A stretch of DNA of 64,000 bases from NCBI RefSeq assembly GCF_003334815.1, contig NZ_QOWO01000021.1, one strand, 5' to 3'. This document shows, one piece after another, positions 34,712 to 38,638 of the stretch; positions within the stretch are counted from its first letter, which is position 1, and the number at the start of each line of letters is the position of its first letter. A program made the translations under genes and the position numbers. The stretch is from Escherichia coli (GTDB lineage: Bacteria > Pseudomonadota > Gammaproteobacteria > Enterobacterales > Enterobacteriaceae). Below the pieces are notes generated by a model that saw only the letters and a list, made by a program, of their open reading frames with translations, made no database searches and was not told where the DNA came from.

Positions 34712-35866
34712 TTACTTCAGACCGGCAGCATCGCGCAGCAGCTGCGCTTTGTCGGTTTTTTCCCACGGGAAATGTTCACGACCAAAGTGACCGTATGCTG
34801 CGGTTTCTTTGTAGATCGGGTGCAGCAGATCCAGCATCTGAATCAGACCGTATGGGCGCAGGTCGAAGAACTCACGTACCAGCAGGGTCAGTTGTTCAGA
34901 AGGCACTTTCTCAGTACCGAAAGTTTCTACCATGATGGAGGTCGGTTCAGCCACGCCGATTGCGTAGGAAACCTGAATTTCACAACGATCGGCCAGGCCA
35001 GCAGCAACGATGTTTTTCGCGACATAACGTGCTGCGTAGGCTGCGGAACGGTCCACTTTTGATGGATCTTTACCAGAGAATGCACCGCCACCGTGACGCG
35101 CCATGCCGCCGTAGGTATCAACGATAATTTTACGACCAGTCAGACCGCAGTCACCCATTGGGCCACCGATAACGAAACGACCGGTCGGGTTGATGAAGAA
35201 TTTGGTGGCAGAAGTCAGCCATTCAGCGGGCAGAATTGGCTTGATGATCTCTTCCATTACCGCTTCTTGCAGCGATTTCTGGTCGATCTCTTCAGAGTGC
35301 TGAGTGGAAAGCACGACAGCATCGATACCAACGATTTTGCCGTCGTCATACTGAAAAGTCACCTGGCTTTTCGCGTCCGGGCGCAGCCACGGCAGAGTGC
35401 CGTTTTTACGCACTTCAGCCTGACGCTGTACCAGACGGTGTGCATAGGTGATAGGTGCTGGCATCAGCACGTCGGTTTCATTAGTTGCGTAGCCAAACAT
35501 CAGACCCTGGTCACCCGCGCCCTGTTCCAGCGGATCGGCACGGTCAACGCCCTGGTTGATGTCAGGAGACTGTTTGCCGATAGCGCTCAGAACCGCACAG
35601 GAGTTAGCGTCAAAGCCCATGTCGGAATGCACATAGCCAATTTCGCGAACGGTGTTACGGGTGATCTCTTCGATGTCTACCCAGGCGCTGGTGGTGATTT
35701 CGCCGCCAACTAAAACCATGCCGGTTTTTACGTAGGTTTCGCAAGCAACGCGTGCTTTCGGATCCTGTTCGAGGATCGCGTCTAAAACGGCATCAGAAAT
35801 TTGGTCAGCAATTTTGTCAGGATGCCCTTCAGAGACGGACTCGGACGTAAAAAGGTGTTTTGCCAT
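34712..35866 (-). CDS. metK: S-adenosylmethionine synthetase
   Basis: Translation [43 protein letters not shown]... recognised as MetK. Confidence 0.96.
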
Positions 35867-36170
35867 ATTTAATATCACCTAAAGAGAATTTGGTTAGCTC
35901 AAACTGTTGTGTGGATTTTCTGTGGTAGCGGATCCTACCACGACTCTGCAGGTTAAAAACACTGGCAGTCTGAGTGTTAATCGGTATGGATGGATTAACA
36001 TCTGGATGGCTATTTTAGGTCAATTCTTCACCCTATTTCCACTTTTTTTTTGAATCGTGTCTCATTCTGTTAAAAACGTGGCTGGAAATTTTTCCTGACA
36101 ATGCCGGCATTCTGCGTATTTATCTTTTGCAATTTTCTGCCATTGTGGGGTATAAAACGCGGCGCGCGGC

Positions 36171-36386
36171 TTAAATAAAAAGCACACGACGTTTCTTTCG
36201 TGTTGCCACTTCCAGCCGGGTTGAAATCAGAGTTTTGGCTTGTGGGTTCGTCTTAACAGGCGGCCGTGGAGGTGATACGAAATAATGAACCGTTGTCTGC
36301 TGCTTAACCTGTCTCACCGTTCTGGTGAAGATTCGTTCCCCGCACTCTGCATCTCTGCTTTGCATACCTGCCGATGTTATACCCAT
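36171..36386 (-). CDS. yqgC: Small protein YqgC (71 aa)
   Basis: ORF in metK-speA intergenic region at the position of K-12 yqgC; identity from memory. Confidence 0.5.
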
Positions 36387-36521
36387 CTCGGCGCTTCTCA
36401 GGATTCAAGAGCTGGTTACAGTTACTGAGGACTGAACAAGGGCGCTCTTGTAAAAACAAGAGTTTTCTCGTGGTTTCGCCGAACTTTCACACTTACGTTC
36501 GGTTATGTGCTTAATAATGTT

Positions 36522-36653
36522 ATGAAAAAGAAACCGGTTGCGCAGTTGGAGCGTCAGCATTCACTGCTGGAAAATCCATGTGCTTATGGGTTGTTATCGC
36601 AGTTCCAGGCTGCGATAGTCGTTAACTGTTTTACACTTAATAAAATAATTTGA
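36522..36653 (+). CDS. yqgB: Small protein YqgB (43 aa) in speA leader region
   Basis: ATG 36522 to TGA 36651-36653, translation [43 protein letters not shown]; immediately upstream of speA. Confidence 0.65.
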
Positions 36654-36661
36654 GGTTCGCT

Positions 36662-38638
36662 ATGTCTGACGACATGTCTATGGGTTTGCCTTCGTCAGCG
36701 GGCGAACACGGTGTACTACGCTCCATGCAGGAGGTTGCAATGAGCTCCCAGGAAGCCAGCAAGATGCTGCGTACTTACAATATTGCCTGGTGGGGCAATA
36801 ACTACTATGACGTTAACGAGCTGGGCCACATTAGCGTGTGCCCGGACCCGGACGTCCCGGAAGCTCGCGTCGATCTCGCGCAGTTAGTGAAAACTCGTGA
36901 AGCAGAGGGCCAGCGTCTGCCTGCACTGTTCTGTTTCCCACAGATCCTGCAGCACCGTTTGCGTTCCATTAACGCCGCGTTCAAACGTGCGAGGGAATCC
37001 TACGGCTATAACGGCGATTACTTCCTTGTTTATCCGATCAAAGTTAACCAGCACCGCCGCGTGATTGAGTCCCTGATTCATTCGGGCGAACCGCTGGGTC
37101 TGGAAGCCGGTTCCAAAGCCGAGTTGATGGCAGTACTGGCACATGCTGGCATGACCCGTAGCGTCATCGTCTGCAACGGTTATAAAGACCGCGAATATAT
37201 CCGCCTGGCATTAATTGGCGAGAAGATGGGGCACAAGGTCTATCTGGTCATTGAGAAGATGTCAGAAATCGCCATTGTGCTGGATGAAGCAGAACGTCTG
37301 AATGTCGTTCCTCGTCTGGGCGTGCGTGCACGTCTGGCTTCGCAGGGTTCGGGTAAATGGCAGTCCTCCGGCGGGGAAAAATCGAAGTTCGGCCTGGCTG
37401 CGACTCAGGTACTGCAACTGGTTGAAACCCTGCGTGAAGCCGGGCGTCTCGACAGCCTGCAACTACTGCACTTCCACCTCGGTTCGCAGATGGCGAATAT
37501 TCGCGATATCGCGACAGGCGTTCGTGAATCCGCGCGTTTCTATGTGGAACTGCACAAGCTGGGCGTCAATATTCAGTGCTTCGACGTCGGCGGCGGTCTG
37601 GGCGTGGATTATGAAGGTACTCGTTCGCAGTCCGACTGTTCGGTGAACTACGGCCTCAATGAATACGCCAACAACATTATCTGGGCGATTGGCGATGCGT
37701 GTGAAGAAAACGGTCTGCCGCATCCGACGGTAATCACCGAATCGGGTCGTGCGGTGACTGCGCATCACACCGTGCTGGTGTCTAATATCATCGGCGTGGA
37801 ACGTAACGAATACACGGTGCCGACCGCGCCTGCAGAAGATGCGCCGCGCGCGCTGCAAAGCATGTGGGAAACCTGGCAGGAGATGCACGAACCGGGAACT
37901 CGCCGTTCTCTGCGTGAATGGTTACACGACAGTCAGATGGATCTGCACGACATTCATATCGGCTACTCTTCCGGCATCTTTAGCCTGCAAGAACGTGCAT
38001 GGGCTGAGCAGCTTTATTTGAGCATGTGCCATGAAGTGCAAAAGCAGCTGGATCCGCAAAACCGTGCTCATCGTCCGATTATCGACGAGCTGCAGGAACG
38101 TATGGCGGACAAAATGTACGTCAACTTCTCGCTGTTCCAGTCGATGCCGGACGCATGGGGGATCGACCAGTTGTTCCCGGTTCTGCCGCTGGAAGGGCTG
38201 GATCAAGTGCCGGAACGTCGCGCTGTGCTGCTGGATATTACCTGTGACTCTGACGGTGCTATCGACCACTATATTGATGGTGACGGTATTGCCACGACAA
38301 TGCCAATGCCGGAGTACGATCCAGAGAATCCGCCGATGCTCGGTTTCTTTATGGTCGGCGCATATCAGGAGATCCTCGGCAACATGCACAACCTGTTCGG
38401 TGATACCGAAGCGGTTGACGTGTTCGTCTTCCCTGACGGTAGCGTAGAAGTAGAACTGTCTGACGAAGGCGATACCGTGGCGGACATGCTGCAATATGTA
38501 CAGCTCGATCCGAAAACGCTGTTAACCCAGTTCCGCGATCAAGTGAAGAAAACCGATCTTGATGCTGAACTGCAACAACAGTTCCTTGAAGAGTTCGAGG
38601 CAGGTTTGTACGGTTATACTTATCTTGAAGATGAGTAA
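36662..38638 (+). CDS. speA: Biosynthetic arginine decarboxylase
   Basis: Translation from [49 protein letters not shown]... recognised as SpeA. Confidence 0.95.

Follow-up and report, generated by a model that had tools for sequence, protein, structure and literature searches.

We analysed a 64,000-nucleotide (nt) stretch of Escherichia coli DNA (contig NZ_QOWO01000021.1 of assembly GCF_003334815.1; hereafter the window), in which a sequence-only reading had placed two small open reading frames (ORFs), yqgB and yqgC, at 36171–36661, between metK (34712–35866, minus strand) and speA (plus strand, ATG at 36662), the latter followed by speB (plus strand, from 38776). The locus is that of E. coli: the 1-kb stretch around the ORFs was found in 5426 of 5426 complete genomes at an identity of at least 95%, and the window is the reverse complement of the K-12 metK–speA region, the K-12 coordinate and the window coordinate of any position adding up to 3122583. 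The four gene names used in that reading (yqgB, yqgC, metK and speA) were correct, and its ORFs were exact: yqgB has 43 codons (36522–36653, plus strand) and stops 8 nt before the speA start codon (gap 36654–36661), and yqgC has 71 codons on the opposite strand (36171–36386, minus strand). It had missed yqgG, which lies antisense to yqgC, and the transcription of the whole interval as the speA 5′ untranslated region (5′ UTR). RefSeq annotates yqgD (marked as frameshifted), yqgG, yqgB (as ‘acid stress response protein’) and speA in the interval; yqgC is not among these features. We conclude that 36171–36661 is the leader of the speAB messenger RNA (mRNA), not two independent tiny genes, and that yqgB probably serves in it as a cis-acting upstream ORF (uORF), whose translation is coupled to that of speA and protects the RNA against Rho.

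The leader spans 498 nt (36164–36661, plus strand), its 5′ end being taken from a published fusion primer: Adams et al. 2021 (PMC7815308) cloned their speA 5′-UTR fusion from GCGCGGCTTAAATAAAAAGC, which corresponds to window position 36164, and a northern legend in the same study names a yqgG–yqgB–speAB transcript. Transcription from about 36164 is driven by a conserved promoter of the sigma-70 type that we read from the sequence (36127–36156, plus strand), with a −35 element TTGCAA (36127–36132), a spacer of 18 nt and a −10 element TATAAA (36151–36156), followed by a GC-rich discriminator. The two hexamers and the downstream GCGCGCGG were at least 95% conserved in 73 non-Escherichia loci, and the promoter was recognisable in Yersiniaceae and Dickeya. 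According to Adams et al. 2021 (PMC7815308), the speA 5′ UTR is terminated by Rho (Rho score 3.1; lacZ fusion and northern blot with rho R66S). Supplementary files 1–3 of that study place the Rho-dependent termination zone at 36528–36729 (plus strand), from the Rho region at K-12 3086055 (window 36528) to the dominant 3′ end at K-12 3085854 (window 36729), which is tabulated as 57 nt into speA; the authors also listed yqgB–speA among validated yet uncharacterised uORF candidates. No Rfam family matched in a search of 35700–36900 (E ≤ 1), so the leader belongs to none of the described riboswitches or leader RNAs.

By size alone, neither yqgB nor yqgC exceeds what chance would produce. When the 795-nt intergenic region was shuffled 2000 times with its dinucleotides preserved, 35% of the shuffles contained an ATG-initiated ORF of at least 71 amino acids, and about 1.9 such ORFs of at least 43 amino acids were expected per shuffle. 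Size being uninformative, we judged the reality of the two ORFs from comparative and published evidence. A scan with one genome per species yielded 80 Enterobacteriaceae speA loci, 78 of which had usable upstream sequence and form the sample below; metK was divergent and upstream in 77/78, at 633–1039 nt. More distant loci, from Dickeya, Yersinia, Serratia, Gibbsiella, Chania and Chimaeribacter, were obtained by exact-protein look-up. Two loci were left out as uninformative: L085 (SpeA hit P0059), from a Salmonella-like assembly full of frameshifts, and L086, with a SpeA that is 72% identical, other neighbours and, upstream, no metK and nothing recognisable as yqgG or yqgB. Records labelled as Chryseobacterium sp., Vagococcus sp. 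and Pseudomonas aeruginosa (L045; P0164, P0332; P0223, P0230) also contained speA leaders of the Enterobacteriaceae type and YqgG or YqgB proteins; these are likely to be contaminated or mislabelled assemblies.

In all 78 loci yqgB lay between metK and speA, on the same strand as speA. Its ATG (36522) was invariant (78/78), and from this codon to the speA ribosome-binding site (RBS) its frame held zero stops in 78/78 loci, whereas the other two frames over the same interval held 278 stops (21 distinct positions) and 179 stops (16 distinct positions). The distance from the yqgB start to the speA ATG took 12 distinct lengths, none of which put yqgB in frame with speA. The frame closed in one of two ways: in 55 loci, including E. 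coli, the stop was a TGA within TTTGAGG, 8 nt before the speA ATG (36651–36653 in the window), and in 23 loci it was a TGA within ATGTCTGA, 8 nt past the A of that ATG. In E. coli, the stop thereby overlaps the Shine–Dalgarno (SD) sequence of speA (GAGG, 36652–36655, with the start ATG at 36662–36664, plus strand); yqgB itself, an entry of the ORF list as well as of RefSeq, is without a recognisable SD sequence. At one site near the yqgB 3′ end we found six independent palindromic, hairpin-forming insertions (37–145 nt), across which the yqgB frame was open in every case and the other frames were open in 5 of 12 cases. Codons 40–43 were variable; because they are free to vary, it would be translation through to the end, and not the sequence of the tail, that is kept. 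In Serratia, Chania, Dickeya and Gibbsiella, too, an ORF terminated either 8 nt upstream of the speA ATG or 8 nt beyond its A, although the YqgB peptide is not conserved in them. From these comparisons, the informative signals in yqgB are the uninterrupted frame and the avoided fusion to speA, and the best-supported candidate for the selected feature would be translation from the yqgB ATG through to the speA RBS.

The six insertions, at the equivalent of about 36633, are carried by loci from several genera (L015, L026, L041, L055, L056 and L075) and have the ends ATACCC...GGGTAT.

On these grounds we propose that ribosomes translating yqgB would, in E. coli, run to a stop on the speA SD sequence and, in other genera, to one located 8 nt beyond the A of the speA start codon, and would act there by two routes. 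First, they would be delivered to speA or re-initiate on it, melting structure around the speA RBS. Second, they would cover the transcript from yqgB into early speA and so prevent Rho termination. Were yqgB poorly initiated, speA would be translated less and Rho would terminate transcription within 36528–36729. Two features make poor initiation plausible: yqgB lacks an SD sequence, and its start falls within a conserved candidate clamp, a long-range helix recovered by RNAalifold (36472–36535, plus strand) in which GGUUUC (36472–36477) would pair with GAAACC (36530–36535, yqgB codons 3–5) and enclose the yqgB start. The clamp was invariant at 6/6 pairs, both in the 32 sequences aligned for structure analysis and in all 78, and covariation therefore speaks neither for nor against it. 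Candidates for masking the speA RBS are a small hairpin that includes the speA start codon (AUGUC-UGAC-GACAU, 36662–36675, plus strand; RNAalifold) and a pairing of the leader 5′ end with 36651–36660; both could form in almost every sequence, and here, too, invariance leaves covariation uninformative.

Published data on yqgB translation and genetics can be set beside this proposal. INRI-seq detected initiation at the yqgB ATG in vitro that, according to its authors, was not seen in vivo (Ribo-RET), a pattern consistent with regulated or weak initiation, and a tagged YqgB product is attributed to Hemm et al. 2008 where that work is cited in Adams et al. 2021 (PMC7815308). In Salmonella, deletion of yqgB lowered speA and speB mRNA, arginine decarboxylase and spermidine, and sensitised the cells to colistin at low pH (Cai et al. 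2026); the direction of this phenotype agrees with a positive role. We infer that yqgB translation activates speA, by both proposed routes. Of the leader-peptide idea in the sequence-only reading, the placement in the speA leader, the frame open to the speA RBS and the standing of yqgB as a published uORF candidate hold, and the coupling is what we infer. In the literature searched, we found neither a leader mechanism nor another RNA-level mechanism of speA control.

The strongest competitor, to which we give a limited chance, is that YqgB is chiefly a trans-acting small protein and that its place before speA merely provides co-expression; this is not exclusive of a uORF role. The window ORF is a full-length member of a family whose names imply such a protein, matching NF033844 (‘acid stress response protein YqgB’) at 90.1 bits against a cutoff of 35 over residues 1–40 and PF11036 (‘Virulence promoting factor’) at E = 4.3e-33 over residues 1–43; given these curated families and the RefSeq annotation, the earlier description of a tiny protein of unclear function is outdated for yqgB. 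The family shares the motif M(K/N)KKPVAQ..QH..L....VYGLLS....AIVVNCFTL, some residues of which are held over synonymous codon changes. Deletion phenotypes have been described under acid shock (Hobbs et al. 2010, as reported in a citing paper) and with colistin (Cai et al. 2026), and in an arrest-peptide screen (PMC11890864) YqgB overexpression induced heat-shock proteins, an aggregation-type response implying that the peptide accumulates, and not the cold-shock-like signature of arrest.

Against a chiefly trans-acting YqgB stands, first, its substitution pattern. The ratio of nonsynonymous to synonymous substitution rates (dN/dS) was 0.88 in frame, no better than the 0.81 and 0.63 obtained off frame, and summed entropy was not higher at third codon positions, so that there was no third-position periodicity; taken as a whole, the YqgB peptide lacks protein-like constraint. 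Second, the best-conserved blocks of yqgB, GGG TTG TTA TCG and GCG ATA, were invariant even at four-fold sites and form the arms of a hairpin inside the ORF (36589–36623, plus strand), with 12 pairs (36589–36600/36612–36623) around a variable 11-nt loop. Of the alignment cells in this hairpin 99.7% were paired; eight pairs were invariant and four changed on one side only, and the invariance of the arms at synonymous sites points to constraint at the RNA level. Third, the C-terminus tolerates insertions that displace the conserved motif 12–50 codons from the stop, and, codons 40–43 being variable as well, no conserved motif of the nascent peptide keeps a constant spacing to the yqgB stop. Profile hits were limited to Enterobacteriaceae sensu stricto. 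In Yersiniaceae, the block GCTGCGATAGT, which is the 3′ arm of the hairpin, persisted together with a frame that closed 8 nt beyond the A of the speA start codon, and the yqgB ATG and most of the peptide did not. Initiation in vivo is weak, and the deletion phenotypes are those expected from lower speAB expression: the authors noted their polyamine dependence, and neither complementation nor a polar-effect control was reported (Cai et al. 2026).

Several points weigh against yqgB as a translated cis-acting uORF that activates speA. The position of its stop is less informative than its uninterrupted frame: TTGAGGTTCGCTATGTCTGACGA, at the speA SD sequence and start, was invariant in the 32 sequences, and because the nucleotides around the speA RBS do not vary, ORFs entering in two of the three frames stop there anyway. 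YqgB residues A7 (with four codons), H13, V33 and V34 were conserved over synonymous variation, so a role for the peptide sequence, whether in cis or in trans, is possible. In the Yersinia loci sampled, the ATG-initiated ORF resembling yqgB stopped early, 55–100 nt upstream of speA, and tight coupling is therefore not universal. The candidate helices over the yqgB start and the speA start, being invariant, are without covariation support. Among the experiments, none tells yqgB translation from yqgB RNA or from YqgB protein, and the Salmonella deletion (Cai et al. 2026) also takes out conserved RNA elements. Finally, a ribosome terminating on the SD sequence could occlude speA initiation instead of promoting it.

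This last point, extended to a role for yqgB, would make its translation a repressor of speA, through SD occlusion at the overlapping TGA or through ribosome diversion, as in classical inhibitory uORFs. The conserved arrangement of the stop over GAGG, where a ribosome would cover the speA start region, fits such repression. We nevertheless consider it unlikely: the yqgB deletion lowered, and did not raise, speA and speB mRNA and enzyme (Cai et al. 2026), and the Rho zone starts where yqgB starts, so that untranslated RNA there should cut downstream expression. Distances of 8 nt between stop and start are, moreover, typical of positive coupling. Less likely still is a purely RNA-based leader in which the yqgB frame is an incidental by-product and its translation irrelevant: strong nucleotide conservation, several covariation-supported helices and the lack of a protein-like substitution pattern in yqgB would suit it, but the variable columns give many stops in both other frames and none in that of yqgB, the frame stays open through independent insertions, the ATG is invariant, and both initiation (INRI-seq) and a tagged product (Hemm et al. 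2008, as cited by others) have been reported.

A dnaX-like slippery site at yqgB codons 2–3 (G AAA AAG) was considered and rejected, codon 2 being AAT or AAC in 50/78 loci.

The second uORF of the leader, yqgG (36285–36428, plus strand; 47 codons; in RefSeq and with a match to Pfam PF23505), is preceded by a strong SD sequence, GGAGGTGAT (36268–36276, plus strand), with a 9-nt match to the anti-SD that was invariant or nearly so in 76/78 loci and reads GGAGGTG(A/G)T in Yersiniaceae and Dickeya. Its ATG was likewise conserved in 76/78 loci, and its length was 44–50 codons in most. Weaver et al. 2019 found yqgG to be translated and detected tagged YqgG. Within Enterobacteriaceae, the in-frame dN/dS was 0.55, compared with 0.89 and 0.95 in the other two frames, and for the C-terminal half it was 0.44, compared with 0.84 and 2.97. 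The peptide ends in RCYTH(L/M)GA(S/T)QDSRAG, and this C-terminal motif reaches Yersinia, Serratia, Gibbsiella, Chania, Chimaeribacter and Dickeya, the stop following right after RAG in most of them and QDSRAG lying 0–6 codons from the stop. Nearly all codons of GA(S/T)QDSRAG differ at the third position between families with the amino acid unchanged, and because third positions differ in this way over nine codons, the YqgG C-terminus is under selection at the level of the peptide. Its ...SQ..RAG ending may resemble the SecM arrest motif (...SQAQGIRAGP).

Two candidate arguments about yqgG were dropped. The Arg42 change from AGA to CGG was not accepted as a multi-step synonymous change, since most Enterobacteriaceae have AGG and a single step suffices, and yqgG was rejected as a classical arginine-codon attenuator, as it has merely two invariant Arg codons, which are not adjacent. 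In two loci, from Citrobacter portucalensis (L016) and a Citrobacter sp. (L027), an insertion of about 100 nt breaks the conserved 3′ part of yqgG; in this natural variant the peptide reads ...CYIHKII..., the motif is lost and the stop lies 116 nt before the downstream hairpin.

That hairpin is terminator-like (36445–36462) and is followed by an invariant U-rich tract, TTTTCTCGTGGTTT (the whole at 36444–36476, plus strand; terminator scan; three compensatory pairs). It starts 15 nt past the yqgG stop, the usual spacing across the loci, and a hairpin with a U-rich tract after yqgG was also present in Dickeya, Serratia, Gibbsiella and Chania, with differing sequences. Under the conditions of Adams et al. 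2021 (PMC7815308), the Term-seq tables list no 3′ ends at the U-tract of this hairpin; over K-12 3085900–3086499, the sole 3′ end listed is 3086295, window 36288. The latter lies 3 nt past the yqgG ATG, just downstream of the strong SD sequence, and could come from processing or from protection by a bound ribosome.

Helices were taken from an RNAalifold consensus and their pairs then counted on the 32-sequence alignment, with shuffles and slid helices as controls. Across the named leader helices 95.8% of cells were paired, and 110 compensatory cells were counted against 40 ± 7 in shuffled and 13–31 in slid controls. Besides the hairpins described above, the leader contains (all plus strand) a 5′-proximal stem-loop at 36182–36206 (92% of cells paired; two pairs changed on both sides), a stem-loop at 36248–36263 just 5′ of the yqgG SD sequence (compensatory both-side changes in 6/6 pairs), one within yqgG codons 10–14 at 36314–36328 (compensatory changes in 4/5 pairs) and, between the terminator-like hairpin and yqgB, the stem-loop CCGAAC/GTTCGG at 36479–36502, with a variable loop (two compensatory pairs; 95% of cells paired). 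A whole-leader minimum-free-energy fold and pairwise RNAduplex runs gave long, loop-rich ‘duplexes’ that were uninterpretable; they were set aside and only helices recovered by RNAalifold were kept. The 5′ end of the leader (36164–36172), GCGCGGCU(C/U), can pair either with the Arg-Ala-Gly codons of yqgG (36409–36416) or with the speA SD region (36651–36660); both pairings were compatible with at least 97% of the 78 sequences, with one-sided changes only. These alternative pairings may form a conformational switch, which we regard as a lead, not a result.

A two-uORF metabolite sensor is a tentative extension of these observations, proposed by analogy and given about as much credence as a trans-acting YqgB. 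In such a leader, YqgG would be a ligand-responsive arrest peptide like SpeFL that gates yqgB translation, Rho access and speA initiation. Its ligand would be arginine, agmatine or a polyamine, and a stalled YqgG ribosome would set the folding of the terminator-like hairpin, the GGUUUC/GAAACC clamp and the leader 5′ end.

On the opposite strand, yqgC (36171–36386) runs antisense to yqgG and to the 5′-most 220 nt of the speA leader, and we judged it not to be a gene. Its frame was intact in 6/78 loci, all Escherichia, and elsewhere carried one to seven stops or frameshifts. Weaver et al. 2019 saw no ribosome density on yqgC in cells treated or untreated with initiation inhibitors, so that the finding named by the sequence-only reading as speaking against its ORFs, a lack of ribosome occupancy, has been reported for yqgC, and they did not detect SPA-tagged YqgC in exponential or stationary phase. 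The seeming conservation of its N-terminus reflects that of the yqgG 3′ region on the opposite strand. Because the frame is intact only in Escherichia and translation was found to be absent, yqgC is most likely a chance antisense ORF, despite a Pfam entry (PF17430; E = 2.8e-39 over residues 1–51), and the earlier label of tiny protein is unsupported here. That yqgC is a genuine small protein expressed in conditions outside those assayed is very improbable: the existence of the Pfam family and the intact ORF in the sampled Escherichia species favour it, but the frame is broken in 72/78 loci although the DNA there is conserved on account of the other strand, shuffles readily produce an ORF of this length, neither ribosome density nor tagged protein was found, and the NCBI pipeline (RefSeq PGAP) has dropped the call. 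yqgD (35922–36174, plus strand) is probably another spurious legacy ORF. It is frameshifted in the window at a T9 run (36043–36051), occurs as an ORF in Escherichia only, and spans the promoter region of metK and speA, upstream of the point where speA transcription starts.

The speA promoter did not appear in the output of a consensus scan because its −10 element (TATAAA) ends in A, and the three promoter sites that the scan did return were dropped, conservation giving them no support. Within the promoter stretch 36127–36172, the GC-rich discriminator and start region ACGCGGCGCGCGG was conserved across families. Such discriminators are typical of promoters under stringent (ppGpp/DksA) control. 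Upstream of metK, a block at 35962–36055 with at least 95% nucleotide conservation is presumably the metK promoter and operator region. Within speA, papers describe an internal in-frame start at codon 27 (window 36740) that yields SpeA minus 26 residues, and a further form beginning four residues later.

Known leaders whose regulatory uORFs are linked to Rho-dependent attenuation, such as those of mdtU, speFL and tnaC, offer both likenesses and differences. Like the speA leader, that of mdtU–mdtJI, which encodes a spermidine exporter, belongs to a polyamine-related E. coli operon; its 5′ UTR is long, contains a translated uORF and is subject to premature termination by Rho, as described in the same dataset (Adams et al. 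2021, PMC7815308). For mdtU, however, translation of the uORF and dependence on spermidine were shown by experiment and the MdtU C-terminus is conserved (PMC7815308), whereas in yqgB the C-terminus is the least conserved part, the stop abuts the main ORF and the dependence on translation is proposed from comparison. The leader ORF speFL (orf34) of speF (Ben-Zvi et al. 2019, PMC6386406) resembles yqgB in preceding a polyamine-biosynthetic decarboxylase in Enterobacteriaceae under Rho control. SpeFL differs in its ligand-dependent, ornithine-sensing ribosome arrest at a fixed position. It is reportedly an ornithine-sensing arrest peptide. YqgB, by comparison, gave a heat-shock signature on overexpression (PMC11890864) and has its motif shifted relative to the stop by insertions; the SpeFL-like ORF of the speA leader, if any, would by analogy be yqgG and not yqgB.

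Translationally coupled ORF pairs such as trpE–trpD and galT–galK work by termination–reinitiation or by unmasking of the RBS. As in these pairs, the yqgB stop is no more than 8 nt from the downstream start and overlaps its SD sequence, and the juxtaposition is conserved across genera; unlike in them, the upstream partner is a 43-codon leader ORF and not an enzyme gene, and the coupling is a proposed one.

Earlier publications had already described both ORFs and yqgG, the long leader and its dependence on Rho, and had suggested a uORF. To these, our comparison adds evidence on three points: yqgB is maintained as a frame rather than as a peptide, yqgC and yqgD lack conservation, and YqgG has a deeply conserved C-terminal peptide beside a structurally conserved hairpin. 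yqgC and yqgD are legacy K-12 ORF calls without comparative support. The phenotypes ascribed to the YqgB family may be cis effects on speAB, and the acid sensitivity and colistin sensitisation credited to the ‘YqgB protein’ may instead be polar effects on these genes, a possibility that bears on the drug-target claim of one study in which drug screening and binding assays were directed against the YqgB peptide. speA opens the arginine route to putrescine, and decades-old reports describe its repression by putrescine. For the mechanism of the leader, the comparative data single out the yqgB start codon, the yqgB stop position and the yqgG motif as informative sites, and the two-uORF sensor, if true, would provide a mechanism for feedback control of the biosynthetic arginine decarboxylase.

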